Source of the DNA: Kofleriaceae bacterium
Lineage (GTDB): Bacteria > Myxococcota_A > Polyangia > Haliangiales > Haliangiaceae
Reading direction: 5' to 3'
Length of the DNA stretch: 64,000 nt
Assembly: GCA_965223575.1 (NCBI GenBank)
Contig: CBDCWZ010000010.1
Span: 1 to 64,000 of the forward strand
Shown: positions 1 to 11,567 of the stretch, in pieces
Layout: every line of letters starts with the position of its first letter
Numbering within the stretch: the first letter of the stretch is position 1
Program-made: the position numbers and the translations under genes
Notes under the pieces: generated by a model
Told to the model about the DNA's origin: nothing
Seen by the model: only the letters and a program-made list of their open reading frames with translations
The model's database searches: none

Positions 1-37
1 AGTAGGCCTACTTCATGCATCGCGTACAGCGTCTTAC

Positions 38-2732: not shown

Positions 2733-2874
2733 GGGGGCACTCCACGGGTTGGTTGCCGCGGCTGTAAACCGCTTGCACGAGGGTTAACTAGGGTCCTTCG
2801 GACCCGTTGCCAGGGCCGAAAAATTCCATTGCATGGAATTTGTTCACCAACCTGGTCGAGTCCTTCTGCCCCCA
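2733..2874 (+). tRNA. tRNA-Tyr(GUA)-like, split in the T-loop by a 71-nt element (2786-2856)
   Basis: Acceptor gggggca/tgccccc. Anticodon loop ctGTAaa. T arm gaggg-TT[insert]CGAGT-ccttc. D arm poorly paired, short variable loop, no CCA. Confidence 0.55.
2786..2856 (+). repeat. T-loop element copy 1 (71 nt, subfamily B)
   Basis: Starts AACTAGG. P1 gggtcc/ggaccc, P2 ccagg/cctgg, P3 gaaaaattcca/tggaatttgttc. Flanks gagggTT|CGAGTcc. Confidence 0.85.
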
Positions 2875-2983
2875 CGACGGGAGACGTGCGCCCAGAAAAT
2901 GGCGCACACGAAAAACAATGACAGCGAAGCGAAAGGAAAAACGATGACGATGACAAAACGAAAACGGATGTGCGGACAACTTC

Positions 2984-3127
2984 TGCCTCCGTGACGCAAC
3001 GGTAGCGTAACCGACTTTTAATCGGAAAGTTGGGGGTTAACTAGGATGCTTCGCATCCGTTGACGCCACGGTATAAATCCAGCGAACTGGATTTATACCG
3101 TAAGGCGGACGATTCCCTCCGGGGCAC
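2984..3127 (+). tRNA. tRNA-Lys(UUU), split in the T-loop by a 71-nt element (3039-3109)
   Basis: D arm acgc/gcgt. Anticodon loop ctTTTaa. T arm ggggg-TT[insert]CGATT-ccctc. Acceptor halves (tgcctcc / cggggca) pair imperfectly. Confidence 0.55.
3039..3109 (+). repeat. T-loop element copy 2 (71 nt, subfamily A)
   Basis: AACTAGG start. P1 ggatgc/gcatcc, P2 cgcc/ggcg, P3 ggtataaatccag/ctggatttatacc. Flanks gggggTT|CGATTcc. Confidence 0.85.
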
Positions 3128-3128
3128 G

Positions 3129-3221
3129 ACCGCGTTGCTGAAGATTTTGCAGAGCGTAGTGGACGCAGTCCACGGAGCTGCAAAAGTTCAGGCGCGTTAA
3201 CGGTCCTGTAGGGACCCAGTT
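3129..3221 (-). repeat. T-loop element copy 3 (93 nt, long subfamily C, reverse)
   Basis: The reverse complement starts AACTGGGTCC and ends ...CAGCAACGCGGT. Flanks on the element strand are gaTT|CGtg. Lies between tRNA-Lys(UUU) and tRNA-Gln(CUG). Confidence 0.75.
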
Positions 3222-3227
3222 AATCAT

Positions 3228-3298
3228 TCGGAGATCGTCTAACGGTAGGACGACTGGCTCTGGACCAGTAAATCGGGGTTCGAATCCCTGTCTCCGAC
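3228..3298 (+). tRNA. tRNA-Gln(CUG)
   Basis: Acceptor tcggaga/tctccga. D arm gtct/ggac. Anticodon loop ctCTGga. T arm cgggg-ttcgaat-ccctg. The 3' end is abutted by reverse element copy 4. Confidence 0.8.
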
Positions 3299-3367
3299 CG
3301 CGTTGCTGAACAAATTCAACGAAGTGGAATTTTTCAGCCGCGATAACGGGTCCGAAGGACCCTAGTT
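3297..3367 (-). repeat. T-loop element copy 4 (71 nt, subfamily B, reverse)
   Basis: The reverse complement reads AACTAGGGTCCTTCGGACCCGTT...GCAACGCGGT. P2 cgcg/cgcg. Element-strand flanks ctggTT|CGgaga. Excising it restores tctccgaACCA. Confidence 0.85.
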
Positions 3368-3502
3368 AACCAGAACGAAACTGCGGTGTTCGCGACACGA
3401 GTGCCTTGAGTGGCCAGGGTGAACGACATCATCGGTGGATTCGCGATCTTTGACAACTGAATAGCGACGACGACAACGCGGGGCGTTTCCCGACGCCCCA
3501 TT

Positions 3503-3578
3503 TCCCACTTTGGCGTAGGTGGTCCGCGCGCCGGTCTGAAGAGCCGGAGGACCTGGTTCGATTCCAGGAGGGTGGGAC
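3503..3578 (+). tRNA. tRNA-Phe(GAA)-like, aberrant acceptor/T junction
   Basis: Anticodon arm ccggt-ctGAAga-gccgg. T arm cctgg-ttcgatt-ccagg. tcccact/ggtggga pair only if 2 extra nt follow the T stem. Confidence 0.45.
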
Positions 3579-3584
3579 TTTTGC

Positions 3585-3737
3585 GGGTTCGTGGTGAAAC
3601 AGGATCATACCGGGTTCTTACCCCGTGAGTGAACTGCGCGCGGCCGAAGGCCGTGCTCGTTACCGCGGTTGAAAAATTCCAGTTTGTACTGGAATTTGTT
3701 CAACAACGCGGTGAGCGTGCAAATCGTTCCGGACCCA
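3585..3737 (+). tRNA. tRNA-Lys(CUU), split between the variable loop and the T stem by an 81-nt element (3632-3712)
   Basis: Acceptor gggttcg/cggaccc. D arm gtga/tcat. Anticodon loop ttCTTac. T arm gagcg-tgcaaat-cgttc. Confidence 0.6.
3632..3712 (+). repeat. T-loop element copy 5 (81 nt, hybrid: GC-rich P1 plus B-type P3)
   Basis: AACTGCGCGC start. P1 gcgcggcc/ggccgtgc, P2 cgcg/cgcg, P3 gaaaaattccag/ctggaatttgttc. Atypical flanks gagTG|GAgcg. Confidence 0.75.
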
Positions 3738-3749
3738 CTACTCGCGTTT

Positions 3750-3893
3750 GCCCCTGGAAGCATCTGGGCGAGGCTAGCCGGCTGTCTACCGGCCGAGGAG
3801 GGTTAACTAGGATGCTCCGCATCCGTTGACGCCACTGTACAAATCCAGCGAACTGGATTTGTACAGTAAGGCGGACGATTCCCTTCAGGGGCG
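3750..3893 (+). tRNA. tRNA-Asp(GUC), split in the T-loop by a 71-nt element (3805-3875)
   Basis: Acceptor gcccctg/caggggc (perfect). Anticodon arm gccgg-ctGTCta-ccggc. T arm gaggg-TT[insert]CGATT-ccctt. Confidence 0.65.
3805..3875 (+). repeat. T-loop element copy 6 (71 nt, subfamily A)
   Basis: AACTAGG. P1 ggatgc/gcatcc, P2 cgcc/ggcg, P3 tgtacaaatccag/ctggatttgtaca. Flanks gagggTT|CGATTcc. Confidence 0.85.
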
Positions 3894-3933
3894 CTTTGGA
3901 AGCGCAAGCCAACTGGCGATGGCACCCGATTCG

Positions 3934-4027
3934 ACCGGGTTGCTAAACTTTTGCGAAGCAGAGCGGATGTTCGTCCGCGGAGCTGCAACAAGTTTAGACG
4001 CGGTGACGGGTCCGAAGGACCCTAGTC
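3934..4027 (-). repeat. T-loop element copy 7 (94 nt, subfamily C, reverse) in an anticodon loop
   Basis: The reverse complement starts GACTAGGGTCCTTCGGACCCGTCACCGCG and ends ...CAACCCGGT. Element-strand flanks cccgagTT|CGAAtcggg. Confidence 0.75.
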
Positions 4028-4042
4028 AACTCGGGGCAGGTT

Positions 4043-4117
4043 AACTGCGCGCGCCTTCGGCGTGCTCGTTAACGCCGCTGTACAACTCCAGTTGCTGGAT
4101 TTGTACAGCAAGGCGGA
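4043..4117 (+). repeat. T-loop element copy 8 (75 nt, hybrid: GC-rich P1 plus A-type P3)
   Basis: AACTGCGCGC. P1 gcgcgcc/ggcgtgc, P2 cgcc/ggcg, P3 ctgtacaactccag/ctggatttgtacag. Flanks gcaggTT|CAACTcc. Confidence 0.8.
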
Positions 4118-4140
4118 CAACTCCTGTCGCTTCCGCCGAT

Positions 4141-4223
4141 GGAAGGTAATCAGGCTGCGGAGCCTGGCCCGGCTGCTACCCGGTGCGCGCCAACAGCGTC
4201 TGGCTCGACTCCAGTGCCTTCCG
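4141..4223 (+). tRNA. tRNA-Ser(GCU), class II
   Basis: Acceptor ggaaggt/gccttcc. Anticodon loop ctGCTac. Long variable arm. G73. T-loop ctcgact. Confidence 0.7.
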
Positions 4224-4227
4224 CAAT

Positions 4228-4302
4228 GGCCCGGTCGTCTAATGGTCAGGACACGAGGCTTTCAATCTCGGAATCGGAGTTCGATTCTCCGTCGGGTCAC
4301 CA
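4228..4302 (+). tRNA. tRNA-Glu(UUC)
   Basis: Acceptor ggcccgg/tcgggtc. D arm gtct/ggac. Loop ctTTCaa. T arm cggag-ttcgatt-ctccg. Encoded CCA. Confidence 0.85.
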
Positions 4303-4303
4303 C

Positions 4304-4375
4304 GGGCTGATAGTGATAGTGGGAACACGCTGCTTTCGCACGGCAGAAAGCCGGGTTCGAATCCCGGTCGGTCCA
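4304..4375 (+). tRNA. tRNA-Ala(CGC)
   Basis: Acceptor gggctga/tcggtcc with G3:U70. Loop ttCGCac. T arm ccggg-ttcgaat-cccgg. Begins 1 nt after the preceding tRNA. Confidence 0.8.
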
Positions 4376-4391
4376 CTTTAGCTCCTTCAAT

Positions 4392-4467
4392 GGGCACGCA
4401 TGTACCAAGGGGGCGAGCTGGCCTTGCAAGCCGGCTGTGGTCGGTTCGATTCCGACCGTGTCCACCA
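4392..4467 (+). tRNA. tRNA-Ala(UGC), D arm poorly paired
   Basis: Acceptor gggcacg/cgtgtcc with G3:U70. Anticodon arm ctggc-ctTGCaa-gccgg. T arm gtcgg-ttcgatt-ccgac. CCA. Confidence 0.6.
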
Positions 4468-4474
4468 TCCAATA

Positions 4475-4620
4475 CCAGGTGTAAGTCAGCGGCAGACGGC
4501 ATCGTTTGGGACGATGCAGACGGAGGTTAACTAGGATGCTCCGCATCCGTTGACGCCACTGTACAAATCCAGCGAACTGGATTTGTACAGTAAGGCGGAC
4601 GATTCCTCCAGGGGGCACCA
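4475..4620 (+). tRNA. tRNA-Pro(UGG), split in the T-loop by a 71-nt element (4529-4599); acceptor halves non-complementary
   Basis: Anticodon arm catcg-ttTGGga-cgatg. T arm ggagg-TT[insert]CGATT-cctcc (perfect). 5' ccaggtg versus 3' agggggc do not pair. CCA present. Confidence 0.5.
4529..4599 (+). repeat. T-loop element copy 9 (71 nt, subfamily A)
   Basis: Nearly identical to copy 6. Flanks ggaggTT|CGATTcc. Confidence 0.85.
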
Positions 4621-4634
4621 CACGCATCGATCTT

Positions 4635-4708
4635 CCGCCGGTAGTTCAACGGGAGAACTGTCGCCTGATAAGCGGCCAATGGTGGTTCGATTCCACCCTG
4701 GCGGACCA
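4635..4708 (+). tRNA. tRNA-Ile(GAU)
   Basis: Acceptor ccgccgg/ctggcgg. D arm gttc/gaac. Loop ctGATaa. T arm ggtgg-ttcgatt-ccacc. CCA. Confidence 0.85.
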
Positions 4709-4709
4709 T

Positions 4710-4784
4710 GGTGATCGTAGCTCAAAGGTAGAGCACTCGGCTGTGACCCGAGCGGTGGGAGTTCGATTCTCCTCGATCACCCCA
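4710..4784 (+). tRNA. tRNA-His(GUG) with G-1
   Basis: G-1 opposite C73. Acceptor gtgatcg/cgatcac. D arm gctc/gagc. Loop ctGTGac. CCA. Confidence 0.85.
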
Positions 4785-4796
4785 ACTTCCTTTTCA

Positions 4797-4870
4797 GCGG
4801 GCTTGGCGTAACAGCAGCGTATCAGGCTTCCAACCTGAGGGTACGGGTGCAATTCCCGTAGCCCGCACCA
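4797..4870 (+). tRNA. tRNA-Gly(UCC)
   Basis: Acceptor gcgggct/agcccgc. Anticodon arm tcagg-ctTCCaa-cctga. T arm acggg-tgcaatt-cccgt (unusual T-loop). CCA. Confidence 0.75.
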
Positions 4871-4872
4871 AC

Positions 4873-4943
4873 GCCTTCGTAGCACAGGGGCAGTGCACTG
4901 GTTTCGTACTCCAGGGACGTGGGTTCGATTCCCGCCGAAGGCT
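4873..4943 (+). tRNA. tRNA-Thr(CGU)
   Basis: Acceptor gccttcg/cgaaggc. D arm gcac/gtgc. Loop ttCGTac. T arm gtggg-ttcgatt-cccgc. Confidence 0.75.
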
Positions 4944-4947
4944 CCGC

Positions 4948-5018
4948 TTCGGTGTCGTCCAACGGCAGGACAGCGGTCTTTGAAGCCGACGACCGGGGTT
5001 CGAATCCCTGCACCGGAA
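4948..5018 (+). tRNA. tRNA-Gln(UUG)
   Basis: Acceptor ttcggtg/caccgga. D arm gtcc/ggac. Loop ctTTGaa. T arm cgggg-ttcgaat-ccctg. Confidence 0.75.
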
Positions 5019-5022
5019 CTGC

Positions 5023-5096
5023 GCCTCTCGTAGCCATCTGGGAAGGCACCTGCCTTGTAAGCAGGCTAGGCGGTTCGATTCCGACGAGGGGCTCCA
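5023..5096 (+). tRNA. tRNA-Thr(UGU)
   Basis: Acceptor gcctctc/gaggggc. Anticodon arm cctgc-ctTGTaa-gcagg. T arm ggcgg-ttcgatt-ccgac (1 mismatch). CCA. Confidence 0.65.
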
Positions 5097-5101
5097 TCTA
5101 T

Positions 5102-5173
5102 TCCTCCGTGGCTTAACGGTAGAGCACCCGGCTGTTAACCGGGGATGTGCAGGTTCGACTCCTGCCGGGGAGC
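5102..5173 (+). tRNA. tRNA-Asn(GUU)
   Basis: D arm gctt/gagc. Anticodon arm cccgg-ctGTTaa-ccggg. T arm gcagg-ttcgact-cctgc. One C:A mismatch in the acceptor. Confidence 0.7.
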
Positions 5174-5176
5174 TAT

Positions 5177-5329
5177 GTCGCTATCGTCCAGTTGGCGAGG
5201 ACGCCGGTCTCTCAAGCCGGAAACGGCGGGTTAACTAGGATGCTTCGCATCCGTTGACGCCGCTGAACAAATCCAGCGAACTGGATTTGTTCAGCAAGGC
5301 GGGCAAGTCCCCCTCCCCTAGCGACGCCA
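5177..5329 (+). tRNA. tRNA-Glu(CUC), split in the T-loop by a 71-nt element (5233-5303)
   Basis: Acceptor gtcgcta/tagcgac (perfect). D arm gtcc/ggac. Loop ctCTCaa. TT[insert]CAAGT. The 3' T-stem side carries 5 extra nt. CCA. Confidence 0.6.
5233..5303 (+). repeat. T-loop element copy 10 (71 nt, subfamily A)
   Basis: AACTAGG. P1 ggatgc/gcatcc, P2 cgcc/ggcg, P3 ctgaacaaatccag/ctggatttgttcag. Flanks gcgggTT|CAAGTcc. Confidence 0.85.
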
Positions 5330-5340
5330 TGCGATCGTCG

Positions 5341-5416
5341 ACCGCGTTGCTGAACAAATTCAACGAAGTGGAATTTTTCAGCCGCGGTAACGAGCACGCC
5401 GAAGGCGCGCGCAGTT
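5341..5416 (-). repeat. T-loop element copy 11 (76 nt, hybrid, reverse)
   Basis: The reverse complement starts AACTGCGCGCGCCTTCGGCGTGCTCGTTACCGCGG and carries a B-type P3. Element-strand flanks ttgTT|CGacga. Confidence 0.8.
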
Positions 5417-5443
5417 AACAAGAGCTATTGAGGCCAAGGGGTT

Positions 5444-5514
5444 GACTAGGGTCCTTCGGACCCGTCACCGCGGCTGTAATCCTCCAGTAAACTGGATGAT
5501 TACAGCAACGCGGT
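5444..5514 (+). repeat. T-loop element copy 12 (71 nt, B-like variant)
   Basis: GACTAGG start. P1 gggtcc/ggaccc, P2 cgcg/cgcg, P3 ctgtaatcctccag/ctggatgattacag. Flanks aggggTT|CGATTcc. Confidence 0.8.
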
Positions 5515-5535
5515 CGATTCCCACCGTCGGCTCCA
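5515..5535 (+). tRNA. Orphan tRNA 3' fragment (half T-loop, T stem, acceptor, CCA)
   Basis: cgatt-cccac-cgtcggc-t-cca follows copy 12. Only about 25 nt lie upstream between copies 11 and 12, so the 5' two-thirds of the gene are missing. Confidence 0.4.
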
Positions 5536-5543
5536 ATCACTAT

Positions 5544-5615
5544 GCCTCCACCCAAGGATGGGACGCGGCGCTACGAACGCTGTCGATGAAGGTTCGAGTC
5601 CTTCTGGAGGTGCCA
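5544..5615 (+). tRNA. tRNA-Arg(ACG)-like with a compact D arm
   Basis: Acceptor gcctcca/tggaggt. ccca-agga-tggg hairpin directly after the acceptor. Anticodon arm cggcg-ctACGaa-cgctg. T arm gaagg-ttcgagt-ccttc. CCA. Confidence 0.55.
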
Positions 5616-5617
5616 AT

Positions 5618-5687
5618 ACCACCGCACGTGGACTCGTGGCCTGGGGTTCCGAACCTTGGTGAAGCAGTTCGATTCTGCTCGGTGGAC
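5618..5687 (+). tRNA. tRNA-Arg(CCG)-like with a compact D arm
   Basis: Acceptor accaccg/cggtgga (6 of 7 paired). cacg-tggact-cgtg hairpin. Loop ttCCGaa. T arm agcag-ttcgatt-ctgct. Confidence 0.5.
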
Positions 5688-5785
5688 CGGGTTGCTGTAG
5701 TTATGCAAAGCGGAGCGGACGGAAGGTCCGCGAAGTTGCAGAACTACAGGCGCGATAACGGGTCGAGCGTAGCGAAACCCTAGTT
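5686..5785 (-). repeat. T-loop element copy 13 (100 nt, subfamily C, reverse)
   Basis: The reverse complement starts AACTAGGGTTTCGC and ends ...CAGCAACCCGGT. Element-strand flanks aagTT|CCaccg. Abuts the tRNA-Arg(CCG)-like 3' end. Confidence 0.7.
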
Positions 5786-5793
5786 AACTTCAT

Positions 5794-5860
5794 GGGCGAC
5801 GATCTGGGATCAGCTTGGGCTCCAAATCCGAGCAGCGGGGTTCAATTCCTCGGTCGCCTG
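5794..5860 (+). tRNA. tRNA-Trp(CCA)-like with a compact D arm
   Basis: Acceptor gggcgac/gtcgcct. gatc-tgg-gatc hairpin. Anticodon arm ttggg-ctCCAaa-tccga. T arm cgggg-ttcaatt-cctcg. 67 nt. Confidence 0.5.
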
Positions 5861-5870
5861 CAACTCTTGC

Positions 5871-5943
5871 AGTCGCGTAGCCCAACGGAAGAGGCGGCAG
5901 GCTTAGAACCTGTGTGTTGGGGGTTCGAATCCTCCCGCGACTA
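5871..5943 (+). tRNA. tRNA with Leu anticodon UAG but a class-I (5-nt) variable loop
   Basis: Acceptor agtcgcg/cgcgact. Leu-type D arm gcc-caacggaaga-ggc. Anticodon arm gcagg-ctTAGaa-cctgt. T arm ggggg-ttcgaat-cctcc. A73. Confidence 0.6.
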
Positions 5944-5946
5944 CTG

Positions 5947-6091
5947 CGGTACGTAGCCCAATCGGCAGAGGCATCCAGTTTAAGCCCGGACCAGTGAGGG
6001 TTAACTAGGATGCTTCGCATCCGTTGACGCCACTGTACAAATCCAGCGAACTGGATTTGTACAGTAAGGCGGACGACTCCCTCCGTACCGA
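5947..6091 (+). tRNA. tRNA with Leu anticodon UAA, class-I variable loop, split in the T-loop (6003-6073)
   Basis: Acceptor cggtacg/cgtaccg (perfect). D arm gcc-caatcggcaga-ggc. Loop ttTAAgc (1 stem mismatch). T arm gaggg-TT[insert]CGACT-ccctc. A73. Confidence 0.55.
6003..6073 (+). repeat. T-loop element copy 14 (71 nt, subfamily A)
   Basis: Same P1, P2 and P3 as copy 6. Flanks gagggTT|CGACTcc. Confidence 0.85.
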
Positions 6092-6098
6092 CCTTCGA

Positions 6099-6243
6099 GC
6101 CAACGTAGCCCAACTGGCAGAGGCACCGGATTCAAATCGCGGACAGTATCGGTTAACTAGGATGCTCTGCATCCGTTAACGCCGCCGAACAAATCCAGCG
6201 AACTGGATTTGTTCAGCAAGGCGGACGACTCCGATCGTTGGCA
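6099..6243 (+). tRNA. tRNA with Leu anticodon CAA, class-I variable loop, split in the T-loop (6155-6225)
   Basis: Acceptor gccaacg/cgttggc (perfect). D arm gcc-caactggcaga-ggc. Loop ttCAAat (2 stem mismatches). T arm atcgg-TT[insert]CGACT-ccgat (perfect). A73. Confidence 0.5.
6155..6225 (+). repeat. T-loop element copy 15 (71 nt, subfamily A)
   Basis: AACTAGG. P1 ggatgc/gcatcc (loop tct), P2 cgcc/ggcg, P3 gaacaaatccag/ctggatttgttc. Flanks atcggTT|CGACTcc. Confidence 0.85.
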
Positions 6244-6249
6244 CAAAAC

Positions 6250-6408
6250 GCGGACGTGGTGGAACGGGATACACGCAACGTTGAGAGCGTTGTGAGCCAC
6301 GTGCTCAATGCCGGTTAACTCGGGGCCTTTGGACCCGTTCTCGGGGCTGAAAAATTCCACGATGTGGAATTTGTTCACCAACCCGGTCGAATCCGGCCGT
6401 CCGCACCA
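6250..6408 (+). tRNA. tRNA-Leu(GAG), class II, split in the T-loop by a 71-nt element (6317-6387)
   Basis: Acceptor gcggacg/cgtccgc (perfect). Anticodon arm caacg-ttGAGag-cgttg. 17-nt variable arm. T arm gccgg-TT[insert]CGAAT-ccggc (perfect). A73 and CCA. Confidence 0.75.
6317..6387 (+). repeat. T-loop element copy 16 (71 nt, subfamily B)
   Basis: AACTCGG start. P1 ggggcc/ggaccc, P2 cggg/cccg, P3 gaaaaattccac/gtggaatttgttc. Flanks gccggTT|CGAATcc. Confidence 0.85.
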
Positions 6409-6441
6409 TCCAGAAACATCAACCCTCAACGAAAGGCAGCC

Positions 6442-6972
6442 ATGACGGCTCAAACACTGTTGTTGTCCGCGGGCTATGAGCCGATCAAGGTCGTCTCTTG
6501 GCAACGCGCGATAACCTTACTCACGCTCGGCAAGATCGAAGTTCTGGAAGAGTATGATCGCGAAGTTCGATCCCCGACCATTGCGTTTAAGATGCCTGCG
6601 GTCGTTCGACTTTTGCAGGTACTCAAGCGCAACAAGAAGGCAGTCAAGTTCTCGCGCATCAACATCTATGCGCGGGATAAGTACCGGTGCCAATACTGCT
6701 GTCGAAAGCTACCCATCGCCGAGTTGACCTACGACCACGTCGTTCCGCGCGCGAAGGGTGGCAAGACGATTTGGCAGAACATCGTGACCGCATGCGAAAC
6801 GTGCAACAGCCGCAAGGGGAACCGGACGCCGGAGCAAGCGCACATGGCGTTGCTCAACCGGCCAACACGGCCGACTTGGGTCCCGGTCATGACGCTTCGG
6901 GTAAACCGCAACACGGCGCCCGATGCCTGGAGAGACTATCTCTACTGGACCGGTGAACTGCAAAGCGGCTGA
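6442..6972 (+). CDS. HNH endonuclease (McrA/COG1403-like, 176 aa) embedded in the tRNA array
   Basis: Motif YRCQYC...LTYDHVVPRAKGG....N.VTACETCNSRKGNR. ATG at 6442 with gaaagg 8 nt upstream. Starts 34 nt after the CCA of tRNA-Leu(GAG). Confidence 0.8.
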   Translation: MTAQTLLLSAGYEPIKVVSWQRAITLLTLGKIEVLEEYDREVRSPTIAFKMPAVVRLLQVLKRNKKAVKFSRINIYARDKYRCQYCCRKLPIAELTYDHVVPRAKGGKTIWQNIVTACETCNSRKGNRTPEQAHMALLNRPTRPTWVPVMTLRVNRNTAPDAWRDYLYWTGELQSG

Positions 6973-7029
6973 CCGCACACCGAATGCCACGGGCCACAGA
7001 TCGGATCCGCGAGCCCGCCGGCATTCACT

Positions 7030-7117
7030 GGAGAGACAAACCGATTGGCGACGGTGCTCGGCTTGAACCCGAGTGAGCGTAACTGCCTTAGGGGTTCGAC
7101 TCCCCTTCTCTCCGCCA
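7030..7117 (+). tRNA. tRNA-Ser(UGA), class II
   Basis: Acceptor ggagaga/tctctcc. Anticodon arm ctcgg-ctTGAac-ccgag. Long variable arm. T arm agggg-ttcgact-cccct. G73 and CCA. Confidence 0.85.
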
Positions 7118-7118
7118 T

Positions 7119-7203
7119 GGAAGGCATCCGAATGGTGAGGACCCCGGTTGGAAGCCGGGCGGGCGACAACGTTGCCTTGAGGGTTCGAGTCCCTCGCCTT
7201 CCG
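7119..7203 (+). tRNA. tRNA-Ser(GGA), class II
   Basis: Acceptor ggaaggc/gccttcc. Anticodon arm cccgg-ttGGAag-ccggg. Long variable arm. T arm gaggg-ttcgagt-ccctc. G73. Confidence 0.8.
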
Positions 7204-7207
7204 CTGC

Positions 7208-7276
7208 GCCTCGCGGGACGGATCCCAGCTGGGTCTTCTAAACCCGGCGCTCCAGGTTCAATTCCTGGGCGAGGTA
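7208..7276 (+). tRNA. tRNA-Arg(UCU)-like with a compact D arm
   Basis: Acceptor gcctcgc/gcgaggt. ggga-cgga-tccc hairpin directly after the acceptor. Anticodon arm tgggt-ctTCTaa-acccg. T arm ccagg-ttcaatt-cctgg. Confidence 0.55.
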
Positions 7277-7277
7277 C

Positions 7278-7345
7278 GGCTCCTCTGATGGACCAGTCCC
7301 GGCTCTTCTAAAGCTGGAGAGAGCGTTCGATTCGCTCAGGAGCCA
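7278..7345 (+). tRNA. tRNA-Arg(UCU)-like (second copy) with a compact D arm
   Basis: Acceptor ggctcct/aggagcc. ctg-atggac-cag hairpin. Anticodon arm cggct-ctTCTaa-agctg. T arm gagcg-ttcgatt-cgctc. Confidence 0.55.
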
Positions 7346-7538
7346 CTTCGCGCCCCGAACACGCGAAGACTCCTACAGCTTCGCGCGTATTTCGCCACCT
7401 CAACCGTACTGGTCATTGATCCGGGTGGATGTCCGCCCATCGCACGCCGAACTTCGCAAGGTACTTGCGAACACGATCTGAATCGTTGGCGCTCGAGACT
7501 TGGGCGAAATCGATACGTTTCGAAATACGGCGAAATAA

Positions 7539-7580
7539 GGGGTCAGACTGAAGTTATAACTTCAGTCTGACCCCACTTTT
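7539..7580. terminator. Perfect 16-bp hairpin, terminator-like, downstream of the tRNA array
   Basis: ggggtcagactgaagt-tataa-cttcagtctgacccc followed by actttt. Confidence 0.5.
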
Positions 7581-7659
7581 CCCGTCAACCAATTCTCACG
7601 GCTTACTCCAGATTGTTGCCAGCATACGGTTCTCCCGCTATCTCTACTATAATCAATCA

Positions 7660-8850
7660 ATGCTCTGCGTGTTTTGCAATTCTCTGTTGCCTTCGAAGAA
7701 GCCCGAACATGTAGTGAGCGCCTTCCTCGGTGGAAGACGAAGCTCAAGGAATCTGCTCTGTGATCTCCACAATGAAACGTTCGGCGGCTCATTTGAACGC
7801 CACGCGGCCAAAGGACTAGCCTCTCTGGCGAACATGCTTGGTGTCAGGAGCGGTCGCCGGCGAGCACCGCCACAAATTCAGGGCATTAAGGGACCAGACA
7901 AGTCTGAGACTTACACGCTCTTGCCAGGAGCAAAGATCATTCAACCCAAAGCGAAGGTCGAGATCGACGAGTCGGAGAACGGGCAGGTTCGAATACGCAT
8001 CAGAGCTGATGCAACCAAAGGCCATCAGATCCATAAGATTCTGGAGAGTTTCGCAGCCAAGTACGGAACCACGCTAGACGAAACGATTTTAGCCCAAGCC
8101 AACGTTACACAGATTCAACTCCCATCGCCCATTGAACTTGATATCACCCTAGGGCCGGACCTGCTGCGTTCACTCTCAAAAATCTCGTTACTACTTCTCG
8201 CTACCAAGACCGGTACAGTCGCGGTTCGAGGCTCCGCCTTTGAGGATGTTCGCAGGTTCATCGAGATCGGCGGACCAAGCAGTGAGTTCATTCGGATGAA
8301 TTCGGCAGCAAAGCTACCAACCATAGTAGGTCTGCACGAACCAGCAGTAGCCGTGCATCGTTTTTTGGTGTACGCAACTCGCGAATTCGGCTGTTTTGCG
8401 ACAATCGAACTGTATGGATGTTTTCTATTCACAGGCCTTCTTTCCAAGGAGTGGAACTCTGAAAATATTAGCGTTGGCCACTCGGTCAACCCCATCACCG
8501 AGCAACACTTCGTAGCTTATAATTTCAGTTCATCACCAATTTCGATTGACCAATTTGCTACTATCAAAGGCGATCAGGTAGCCACCAATGGCCGGCTGGA
8601 CAATCTGTTGAGCTTCGCAATAAGGCGTATGCAACAGCAAGCTCTTGAAGAAATGGTCGCACGATGTATTAATGAAAGCATTGGTAAGAGCGAGGATGTC
8701 ATTACTGAGGAAATGATCGCCAAATTGACCATGTCCTTTGCCGAGCAGTTCGTTGCTACGCAGAAGGGATACGTTCTAGAGCGACAACTCACCATTGACG
8801 ACGTTATTCCTCGAACTCCGACAGGAGAGCCCGACGGCCCTGATGAGTGA
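7660..8850 (+). CDS. HNH_5-type nuclease-domain protein with an uncharacterised C-terminal region (396 aa)
   Basis: N terminus CVFCNS...KPEHVVSAFLGG...LCDLHN matches the CxxC...EH..P..LGG...C..CN pattern of HNH_5 endonucleases. I do not recognise the rest. Confidence 0.55.
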   Translation: MLCVFCNSLLPSKKPEHVVSAFLGGRRSSRNLLCDLHNETFGGSFERHAAKGLASLANMLGVRSGRRRAPPQIQGIKGPDKSETYTLLPGAKIIQPKAKVEIDESENGQVRIRIRADATKGHQIHKILESFAAKYGTTLDETILAQANVTQIQLPSPIELDITLGPDLLRSLSKISLLLLATKTGTVAVRGSAFEDVRRFIEIGGPSSEFIRMNSAAKLPTIVGLHEPAVAVHRFLVYATREFGCFATIELYGCFLFTGLLSKEWNSENISVGHSVNPITEQHFVAYNFSSSPISIDQFATIKGDQVATNGRLDNLLSFAIRRMQQQALEEMVARCINESIGKSEDVITEEMIAKLTMSFAEQFVATQKGYVLERQLTIDDVIPRTPTGEPDGPDE

Positions 8851-9251: not shown

Positions 9252-9746
9252 CTACGCAGCGAAATCTTCTTCAACTACCCAGCCTTTTTTAGCTGAACGG
9301 AACCCAAGCCTGAGTGGTATTGCTTCTTCTTCGATTTCTTGCAGTCGATCGATAGGATATTGCTGAATTGGGTCAAAGGTGGTTGCTGCGAGTCGAAGAA
9401 GTCTATCTGCAGTCGAGTTCATTTTTTGCGATCCCGACTCCCATCGCGAAACCGTCTCACGCTCGACGCCAAAGTGTCGGGCGAAGTCAGTCCCAGACCA
9501 ACCGAGTGATTTTCTGAGGAATCGGATTTCCTCCGGTGTGAGACGAGCTGATTTGGTACTAATGGCATAGACGATGACCCGATGAAGTTCCTCGACTTTG
9601 GGAATCCCAACAAACGATTCACCGCACGCACCACAACGCTTTACATTCACACCAATCAAGGTGACGCGAACTCCTTGGGCGTCGTACAGGTGATTTTCTC
9701 TCGCTGACTTGAGTTGCCCACCACAATGTATGCACTTCATGTCCAT
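9252..9746 (-). CDS. MqsA-like antitoxin (YgiT zinc finger plus XRE HTH)
   Basis: CIHCGG...CGACGE zinc ribbon. LTPEEIRFLRKSLGWSGTDFARHFGVERETVSRWESG HTH. Confidence 0.7.
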   Translation of the reverse strand: MDMKCIHCGGQLKSARENHLYDAQGVRVTLIGVNVKRCGACGESFVGIPKVEELHRVIVYAISTKSARLTPEEIRFLRKSLGWSGTDFARHFGVERETVSRWESGSQKMNSTADRLLRLAATTFDPIQQYPIDRLQEIEEEAIPLRLGFRSAKKGWVVEEDFAA

Positions 9747-9755
9747 CTCCTTGAT

Positions 9756-10076
9756 TCAGCGGCCCATACGCCATGCTGTAACGGCCACAAGCTCCAGCTC
9801 ACTCCAGAAAGCAACCACAACAGTGATGCGCTGCGTTCGGACCTGATATCTCCAGGAACCATTTTCCCATTCGCCCTCGCCGACAACGCCGCCACGCATG
9901 ACGTTGCTACAATCAATTTCCGACAAGTTGTCGTTCGCCATTTCCTGCCGTGCATGCTTTGAGTAATAGACGGTTCCATTGGTGATGATTTCTCGGATGA
10001 GCCGTTTTGCGTCCGAACTACTGAGTGGCTCATCCATATGTGATCTTATATCACATATTGACTTATAGTCAAACAC
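9756..10076 (-). CDS. DUF4258-like toxin partner
   Basis: SKHARQEMANDNLSEIDCSNVMRGG pattern. 9 nt upstream of the antitoxin gene on the same strand. Confidence 0.55.
   Translation of the reverse strand: MFDYKSICDIRSHMDEPLSSSDAKRLIREIITNGTVYYSKHARQEMANDNLSEIDCSNVMRGGVVGEGEWENGSWRYQVRTQRITVVVAFWSELELVAVTAWRMGR

Positions 10077-11489: not shown

Positions 11490-11567
<78 letters not shown>

Follow-up and report, generated by a model that had tools for sequence, protein, structure and literature searches.

A 64,000-nucleotide stretch of the genome of a Kofleriaceae bacterium (GenBank assembly GCA_965223575.1, contig CBDCWZ010000010.1, positions 1 to 64,000; hereafter the window) carries five transfer RNA (tRNA) genes whose D arm is reduced to a small hairpin set directly against the acceptor stem. 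We found the same compact core in 72 distinct homologues from about 25 independent assemblies, in which the shortened arm shows compensatory base changes, the elbow and identity nucleotides are retained, and the genes lie within dense tRNA arrays. Judging from these sequence patterns, the compact-core family probably consists of chargeable, functional decoding tRNAs of accessory arrays, carried by Myxococcota and by some phage-like contigs. To our knowledge, few biological structures vary as little as the tRNA core, leaving aside organelles and the special-purpose tRNA-Sec, tRNA-Pyl, and allo-tRNAs.

We parsed the genes with a purpose-written cloverleaf scanner and by direct reading of positions 5000-8000. 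Both reproduced an original prediction, made from the letters of the window alone, that five genes with normal acceptor, anticodon, and T arms lie at the coordinates given below. The D-region length is the number of nucleotides (nt) from the 5' strand of the acceptor to the anticodon stem of 5 base pairs (bp), and R1 is a covariance model that we built from 22 Arg sequences (set A2).

5544-5612, with an encoded CCA at 5613-5615, + strand: tRNA-Arg(ACG), compact core; D hairpin 5551-5562, connector 5563-5565, anticodon 5573-5575, D region 15 nt; parsed as GCCTCCA / CCCA-AGGA-TGGG ACG / CGGCG CTACGAA CGCTG / TCGAT / GAAGG TTCGAGT CCTTC / TGGAGGT G; found by cloverleaf scan and relaxed ARAGORN, R1 77.4 bits.
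5618-5687, + strand: tRNA-Arg(CCG), compact core; acceptor ACCACCG, D hairpin 5625-5638 (CACG-TGGACT-CGTG), connector 5639-5641 (GCC), D region 17 nt; found by cloverleaf scan and relaxed ARAGORN, R1 56.4 bits.
5794-5860, + strand: tRNA-Trp(CCA), compact core; acceptor GGGCGAC, D hairpin 5801-5811 (GATC-TGG-GATC), connector 5812-5814 (AGC), D region 14 nt; found by cloverleaf scan, relaxed ARAGORN, folding, and family alignment A4.
7208-7276, + strand: tRNA-Arg(UCU) copy 1, compact core; acceptor GCCTCGC, D hairpin 7215-7226 (GGGA-CGGA-TCCC), connector 7227-7229 (AGC), D region 15 nt; found by ARAGORN and cloverleaf scan, R1 73.6 bits.
7278-7345, + strand: tRNA-Arg(UCU) copy 2, compact core; acceptor GGCTCCT, D hairpin 7285-7296 (CTG-ATGGAC-CAG), connector 7297-7299 (TCC), D region 15 nt; found by relaxed ARAGORN and cloverleaf scan, R1 79.9 bits.

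The D region thus spans 14-17 nt in the five genes, as predicted, versus 18-20 nt in the canonical tRNAs of the same array. All five have a 7-bp acceptor stem, a 5-bp anticodon stem with U33 and R37, a 5-bp T stem, and a TTCRANT loop. Together with their homologues, they carry the canonical features of the acceptor, T, and anticodon arms (7-bp and 5-bp stems, T54-T55-C56...A58, 7-nt loops, U33, and R37). What they do not carry is the canonical U8/N9 connector and a D loop of 7-11 nt with A14, R15, G18G19, and A21; the connector measures 0-1 nt, the loop 3-6 nt, and from that set of nucleotides GG alone is kept. At minimum free energy, each of the five sequences folds into a cloverleaf of four arms whose D hairpin starts right behind position 7; the fold of Arg(UCU) copy 1 has a z-score of -3.7. 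The Trp(CCA) gene has a G discriminator and an anticodon stem that can be extended to 7 bp.

We then asked how widely this geometry is shared, using as a marker the HNH endonuclease gene embedded in the array to which the five genes belong.

2743-7345, + strand: tRNA array of about 35 tRNA or tRNA-like genes, many interrupted; homologous to arrays on contigs L113 and L114 and at 26 genome loci.
6442-6972, + strand: HNH endonuclease gene inside the array (Pfam HNH_5, 3.6e-17; HNH, 6e-15).

Searching one genome for each GTDB species yielded 80 loci (L115-L194), almost all from Kofleriaceae, Haliangiales, or Myxococcales metagenome-assembled genomes, and 26 of them hold a + strand array of 6-35 genes in which gene order around the HNH gene is conserved. 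The closest HNH homologues lie on the ENA contigs L113 (96% identity) and L114 (86%), both with homologous arrays, and orthologues of the window Arg(ACG) gene are found at L113 9022 and L114 9564. The related set used below comprises these 28 arrays (26 genome loci plus L113 and L114) and two IMG/VR contigs. Across it, the compact layout is present in nearly all Arg tRNAs, most Trp tRNAs, and most Met (CAU) tRNAs. A D region of 15-16 nt was measured in 19/21 Arg(ACG), 12/12 Arg(CCG), 3/3 Arg(CCU), and 5/5 Arg(UCU) genes of the related loci, and one of 14-17 nt in 16/20 Trp and 15/18 CAU genes. The other isoacceptors there have D regions of 18-23 nt, barring about a dozen isolated short calls. 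Outside the Arg, Trp, and Met (CAU) tRNAs, the compact core is therefore a rarity, seen now and then in Tyr, Val, and Gly. An isoacceptor switch was also seen: the window gene at 7278-7345 reads UCU, and its near-identical counterpart at L113 10916-10983 reads CCU (loop CTCCTAA).

The two IMG/VR contigs carry the same geometry outside assembled bacterial genomes:

L195 (IMGVR_UViG_3300025536_000012): 137-kilobase (kb) phage-classified contig with 35 tRNAs in 9 kb; its compact tRNAs are Arg(ACG), Arg(CCU), Trp, Val(UAC), and Gly(GCC).
L196 (IMGVR_UViG_3300049044_000033): 462-kb phage-classified contig with a very dense tRNA array; Arg(ACG) is its only compact tRNA.

With compact Arg, Trp, Val, and Gly tRNAs in these contigs, the architecture extends to phage-like elements and its restriction to three amino acids is not strict. 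Gene order in the L195 and L196 arrays is partly like that of the Kofleriaceae arrays. A separate peculiarity concerns tRNA-Tyr(GUA) of the arrays (window 2743-2875; L114 4886; L194 11380; L145 6930), which has a 5-nt variable loop in place of the long arm typical of bacteria; in L194 and L145 this gene also has a Trp-like compact D arm, ATTC-AGG-GAAT.

Alignment of the homologues gave the consensus geometry 7 / 0-1 / 4-(3..6)-4 / 2 / 6-7-6 / 3-4 / 5-7-5 / 7, that is, a 7-bp acceptor, a 4-bp D stem closed by a tiny N-G-G-N loop, and a 5-bp T stem with a TTCRANY loop. Within the Arg D helix (48 distinct sequences, A9), all four pairs change on both sides and 94.3% of cells are paired. The Trp helix (11 distinct sequences, A4) is 100% paired with covariation at 2/4 pairs, and the CAU helix (15 distinct sequences, A5) is 91.5% paired, again with 2/4 pairs covarying. 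For the Arg structure as a whole, the observed score was reached by 0/500 shuffles, and slid-partner controls paired only 33-50%. The uncompensated loss of stems or identity nucleotides that marks pseudogenes was not seen, as 94-100% of stem cells are paired and changes are compensatory, with pair 1:72 of the window Arg(CCG) as the exception. Such compensation in the D hairpin, repeated over the 72 homologues, bears out the proposal that the short arm is a selected architecture rather than random decay.

Two details of the predicted geometry were amended. A missing U8/N9 linker describes the window copies correctly; of the 71 of 72 compact tRNAs with a parsable hairpin, however, 45 lack a connector altogether and 26 have one of 1 nt. 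Similarly, the proposed 3-nt linker after the hairpin is better read as a 2-nt connector plus a sixth anticodon-stem pair, formed by its last nucleotide with the first nucleotide of the variable loop. In Arg, this sixth pair is formed in 20/22 sequences with 6 double changes (CG 14, GC 3, and AU, UA, and GU 1 each); it is formed in 9/11 Trp sequences and is weaker in Met (9/15). A Watson-Crick sixth pair occurs in 58% of the 72 compact tRNAs versus 20% of 235 canonical array tRNAs. A seventh pair is formed in 11/11 Trp sequences and, among Arg, is confined to the UCU subfamily. The compact CAU family includes initiator-like members, with a 1:72 mismatch in 7/15 and, in some, three G-C pairs at the base of the anticodon stem; L113 7579-7647 is an example of the family, and the window has no CAU gene.

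At the tRNA elbow, our alignments contradict the original prediction, according to which the G18G19 contacts are lost and the Arg genes lack A20. GG is present in 72/72 compact D regions, and the D-loop columns that hold it vary little or not at all in the three aligned sets: GG is invariant in Arg and Trp, and in Met the first G is invariant and the second is found in at least 90%. In Arg, the base after GG is A in at least 90% of sequences, and the loops AGGA, CGGA, and TGGA(C) supply the equivalent of G18-G19-A20. Since GG and the following A are kept, the elbow nucleotides and the ArgRS D-loop determinant are retained, not lost. The T loops of all homologues contain TTC. The identity features are likewise preserved (C35 with G36 or U36 in Arg; CCA with discriminator G in Trp; CAU with discriminator A in Met), and anticodon loops and discriminators are family-specific (CTACGAA, CTCCAAA, and CTCATAA). 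Taken from sequence, the retained GG/A, discriminators, and anticodon loops look like signs of selection for aminoacylation and decoding.

Standard annotation tools largely overlook these genes. ARAGORN in default mode called one of the five, at 7203-7277 and in a different, worse acceptor register; all five were recovered in its relaxed or mitochondrial modes. None of the five reached the gathering score of the Rfam tRNA model RF00005 (29 bits). Arg(ACG) came to 25.4 bits with its D arm unaligned, the other four were not reported as tRNA, and the best Rfam match of the Trp gene was tRNA-Sec, at a sub-threshold 25.9 bits (threshold 47). The homologue-built model R1, by comparison, scored the four Arg genes of the window at 56-80 bits (E = 1e-10 to 1e-16), on which account their geometry is not due to chance. 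R1 also separates the compact Arg tRNAs, with at least 55 bits (51 matches), from every ordinary tRNA, below 52 bits. The Rfam tRNA model therefore has a blind spot for compact genes, and the tRNA complements of such arrays are under-counted.

We also examined the array context of the genes. ARAGORN finds 16 tRNAs in the window, and more once inserts are removed, and the arrays of related loci hold 13-35 genes, in keeping with an accessory array unit (a dense same-strand group of 20 or more tRNA genes for most amino acids that is variably present among related genomes). Most arrays have no Arg, Trp, or Met genes other than the compact ones, without which their decoding set would be incomplete. 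Many related arrays also contain an orthologue of Ro60/Rsr (TROVE plus Ro60-vWA domains, E = 1e-45 to 1e-67) between the Thr and Asn tRNA genes, for example:

L154 5957-7642: Ro60/Rsr gene.
L126 6329-8098: Ro60/Rsr gene.
L145 1202-2791: Ro60/Rsr gene.
L192 6027-7715: Ro60/Rsr gene.

In L113, which holds the closest array, genes for RtcR and RtcB follow the array and one for a large serine recombinase precedes it (L113 11051-16655). These Ro60 and Rtc neighbors tie the related arrays to loci for the repair and quality control of RNA. Neither a Ro60 nor an Rtc gene is present in the array of the window itself.

We considered whether the five genes are instead decaying tRNA pseudogenes in a dispensable array, with short D arms that are merely tolerated deletions. 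Decay would fit the window and L113 arrays, which are full of insertions and rearrangements, as well as the sub-threshold Rfam scores of the five genes, the A1/A72 mismatch of Arg(CCG), and the 4:69 mismatch frequent in the CCG family. We nonetheless regard it as improbable: some 25 independent genomes, with HNH markers no more than 62-73% identical, show the same geometry, 4/4 D-stem pairs show compensatory changes, and the GG, the A20 equivalent, the anticodon loops, and the discriminators are kept invariant. Moreover, the feature is confined to three identities while the adjacent tRNAs are canonical.

Several observations do weigh against a family of functional decoding tRNAs. Within its family, the window Arg(CCG) gene is the copy that has diverged furthest. 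It encodes no CCA, and it looks impaired, with an A1/A72 mismatch of its own and with a mobile element interrupting the T-loop of its orthologue in L113. The 4:69 acceptor pair is non-standard (C-U, U-C, or A-C) in 8/22 Arg sequences (A2) and 15/48 (A9), with the other acceptor pairs intact. At least 10 tRNA genes of the window are interrupted by the same element, described below, and selection on this copy of the array may therefore be relaxed by the erosion. A remnant of tRNA-Ser(CGA) in the window lacks the 16-nt variable arm of its L114 orthologue (8145-8235). Finally, GG may be unable to reach the T-loop from a hairpin as short as 4 bp with a loop of 4 nt.

A further alternative, and in our estimation a very unlikely one, is that the genes encode non-decoding tRNA-like RNAs, serving as decoys or sponges for tRNA-directed nucleases or as Ro60/Rtc ligands in the manner of YrlA-type Y RNAs. 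The presence of a Ro60/Rsr gene inside related arrays and of RtcR and RtcB beside the closest relative, L113, would suit such mimics. Chen et al. are also said to have found, in 2014, that bacterial Y RNAs mimic tRNA, which we counted in favor of this explanation. Mimicry does not readily account for complete anticodon arms with isoacceptor-specific loops and several Arg anticodons (ACG, CCG, CCU, and UCU), for close relatives that have switched anticodon (window UCU, L113 CCU), or for retained synthetase identity nucleotides. The compact genes also fill otherwise empty Arg, Trp, and Met slots, match no Rfam Y-RNA family, and in the window belong to an array without Ro60. As for sequencing or assembly errors, in which insertions or deletions would have shortened normal D arms, nothing speaks for them except that the source is probably a metagenome-assembled genome, and they are already refuted by identical D regions in the independent assemblies L113, L114, and L117 and by diverged versions in dozens of others.

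If the compact-core genes do act as decoding tRNAs, their RNA would be expected to fold into an L-shape like that of mammalian mitochondrial tRNA-Ser(UCN), with the longer anticodon stem and shorter connectors compensating for the tiny D loop and with GG docking on the T-loop. Host ArgRS, TrpRS, and MetRS could then charge them through the retained nucleotides, namely C35 with G36 or U36 and the A after GG, CCA with G73, and CAU with A73. Once charged, the tRNAs would take part in ribosomal decoding within a nearly complete set of reserve tRNAs. Given Ro60/Rsr in related arrays and RtcR-RtcB beside the closest relative, that set may serve when host tRNAs are damaged or depleted. Such a scheme would have precedent, as functional tRNAs of this fold exist in mitochondrial tRNA-Ser(UCN) and tRNA-Pyl (PMC7609411).

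The best structural analogue is the type I mammalian mitochondrial tRNA-Ser(UCN), with fewer than 2 connector nucleotides, a small D loop, a 6-bp anticodon stem, and a 3-nt variable loop (PMC7609411). It keeps G18G19 and T-Psi-C and a near-canonical L-shape (PMC7609411), and the compact tRNAs correspondingly keep GG and TTC along with an acceptor-to-D gap of at most 1 nt, a 6-bp anticodon stem, and a variable loop of about 3 nt. The mitochondrial tRNA differs in being organellar, A/U-rich, of serine identity, and a single gene, whereas the compact tRNAs come from G+C-rich bacterial or phage-like arrays and have Arg, Trp, or Met identity. They also differ in a connector that is often 0 nt, a D loop of only 3-4 nt, and, in Trp, a 7-bp anticodon stem.

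The tRNA-Pyl molecules of M. barkeri, D. hafniense, and M. alvus share a compact core. tRNA-Pyl has a 1-nt connector, a 5-nt D loop, a 6-bp anticodon stem, and a 3-nt variable loop, with a 0-nt connector and a 4-nt D loop in M. alvus; the M. barkeri molecule resembles mitochondrial tRNA-Ser(UCN) except that it lacks GG and T-Psi-C (PMC7609411). The absence of G18G19 and T-Psi-C, a CUA anticodon, and a dedicated PylRS set tRNA-Pyl apart from the window genes, which have the anticodons ACG, CCG, UCU, and CCA and contain both GG and TTC. tRNA-Sec, the best (sub-threshold) Rfam match of the Trp gene, is similar in its 4-nt D loop, which closes a 6-bp D stem (PMC7609411). The five genes have neither that D stem nor the other marks of tRNA-Sec (a 13-bp acceptor/T branch arranged 8/5 or 9/4, a long variable arm, and a UCA anticodon); they have a 7/5 branch, a D stem of 3-4 bp, and a variable loop of 4-5 nt.

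Mukai et al. are said to have described in 2017 the allo-tRNAs, conserved non-standard bacterial tRNA architectures mined from genomes and metagenomes, including those of delta-proteobacteria (see also PMC7609411). In allo-tRNAs the departure from the standard form lies in the acceptor/T branch (8/4 or 9/3), and the variable arms are long, whereas the compact tRNAs have a canonical 7/5 acceptor/T branch and deviate in the D arm and core. The compact tRNAs would resemble the mitochondrial tRNA-Ser(UCN) type in how they work, yet are members of none of the compared families, from which they differ in identities, anticodons, hosts, and base composition. Our literature search, incomplete in coverage and leaving a prior description possible, found no account of compact-core Arg, Trp, or Met tRNAs in bacteria or phage, nor of the mobile element.

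The arrays themselves have recognized counterparts. The array units of phages, mycobacteria, cyanobacteria, and Acidithiobacillus likewise group 20-40 tRNA genes, for most amino acids, densely on one strand; they belong to the mobile or accessory genome, and HNH endonuclease genes are frequent in them. A back-up or anti-defence supply of tRNAs has been suggested as their role (PMC12803027). In the literature that we found on such units, there was no report of a conserved compact D arm, an embedded Ro60, or an element that targets the T-loop.

If the compact tRNAs are functional, the solution known from mitochondrial tRNA-Ser(UCN) and tRNA-Pyl would also have been adopted by bacteria and phage-like elements for routine decoding, in three ordinary identities, one of which is an initiator-like CAU family. 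Compact tRNAs would then offer natural scaffolds for orthogonal tRNA engineering. Our work also raises the question of which selective agent (a nuclease, a modification enzyme, or a synthetase) singles out Arg, Trp, and Met in accessory arrays. It is a guess that compactness serves as an escape from a nuclease or modification enzyme that reads the D arm or core. A more ambitious proposal, which we hold to be rather unlikely, is that the compact Arg, Trp, and Met tRNAs form a natural, structurally 'orthogonal' set: they would be chargeable, their remodelled D arm and core would evade enzymes that recognize the canonical core or elbow (for instance tRNA-directed ribotoxins, defence nucleases, and host modification or quality-control factors), and they would sustain translation as part of a mobile back-up, linked to Ro60 and Rtc RNA surveillance, that Myxococcota share with their large phages.

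Regarding the origin of the family, core-sequence identity clusters the three Arg CGN/CCU families with one another at 0.65-0.67, with UCU at only 0.57-0.59; the compact Trp tRNAs group with long-D-stem Trp tRNAs, and Met stands apart. A common origin by anticodon switching is not supported, as the compact Arg, Trp, and Met tRNAs are not grouped by core-sequence identity. Some array Trp tRNAs have another form of D stem, with 6 bp and a TGGT loop. A lone tRNA-Trp in L150, considered as a housekeeping candidate, proved to be an ARAGORN false positive inside a coding sequence.

The element that interrupts the array is a structured, two-hairpin sequence of 71-100 nt, present in 16 copies between 2786 and 6387 (11 on the + strand and 5 on the - strand). 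Its form is AACTAGG-hairpin-CCGTTRAC followed by CGCS-long hairpin-AA-SGCG-G, and its copies are as follows.

2786-2856, + strand: element copy.
3039-3109, + strand: element copy.
3805-3875, + strand: element copy.
4043-4117, + strand: element copy.
4529-4599, + strand: element copy.
5233-5303, + strand: element copy.
5444-5514, + strand: element copy.
6003-6073, + strand: element copy.
6155-6225, + strand: element copy.
6317-6387, + strand: element copy.
3629-3712, + strand: variant element copy.
3129-3221, - strand: element copy.
3297-3367, - strand: element copy.
3934-4027, - strand: element copy.
5341-5416, - strand: element copy.
5686-5785, - strand: element copy.

In the element's own orientation, the target is nearly always GTT^C(G/A), with no target duplication. 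Copies on the + strand sit mostly between T55 and C56 of tRNA T-loops; one of the - strand copies lies in the palindromic TTCGAA anticodon loop of Ser(CGA), and others are at gene ends. Empty sites are seen in L114, where the copy at window 6003-6073 is absent between positions 9869 and 9870. L113 has extra copies, one in the Arg(CCG) T-loop, which is empty in the window, and one in the anticodon loop of Ser(UGA) with an accompanying deletion. Removing the element in silico restores ARAGORN-detectable genes for Tyr, Lys, Gln (with CCA), Asp, and three Leu. The Ser(CGA) remnant, at 3899-4137, carries a - strand element in its anticodon loop and a + strand element in its T-loop, and is probably inactivated.

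Both hairpins of the element covary among copies, with compensatory changes in 12/25 pairs. A covariance model of the element (R2) matches only the window, L113, and L135; none of the other 79 genome loci and none of 50 viral loci has a match. Against the viral contigs, a first sequence pattern returned single chance matches only and later patterns no copy, and no Rfam family matches the element. The element behaves as lineage-restricted, target-specific mobile DNA, and is either a mobile element (a miniature inverted-repeat transposable element or IS200/IS605-like) or an intervening sequence of a new type within tRNA genes. The element contains UUGACUAG and its complement contains GGUCCGAAGG, strings that we take to be those of human Y1 RNA. 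We rejected as unsupported the idea that it is a Y-RNA-like Ro60 binding module: UUGACUAG and GGUCCGAAGG do not face each other as opposite strands of a single helix, the element has no Rfam Y-RNA match, and the arrays with the element (window, L113, and L135) lack Ro60, just as the Ro60 arrays lack the element.

The HNH gene that served as our marker encodes a 176-residue protein from an unusually conserved family, with about 1,900 homologues, the top 120 of which are at least 63% identical. It lies within tRNA arrays in 26 genome loci and in L113 and L114, and the other 54 loci have no array within 10 kb. Because the family is conserved and also present without an array, a role beyond that of a homing endonuclease is suggested.

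Housekeeping genes elsewhere in the window, among them those for glutamate synthase and HflX, are those of a bacterial chromosome. The best named relatives of its HflX, at 58-62% identity, are from Enhygromyxa, Nannocystaceae, and Polyangiaceae, and by these homologue names the organism belongs to the Myxococcota. Exact-match look-ups of the window HNH and HflX proteins, and of proteins P0005 and P0121, gave no hit. A comparison of the window flanks with those of all other array loci found no shared synteny. The surroundings of the array resemble a genomic island and include the following minor features.

934-1284, - strand: DDE transposase fragment.
7660-8850, + strand: open reading frame of 396 codons with a weak N-terminal HNH_5 match.
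9255-9746, - strand: MqsA-like antitoxin gene.
11493-11564, - strand: canonical tRNA-Gly(CCC), near the array.

About 200 nt past the last array gene, a perfect 16-bp hairpin at 7539-7574 could be a bidirectional terminator.

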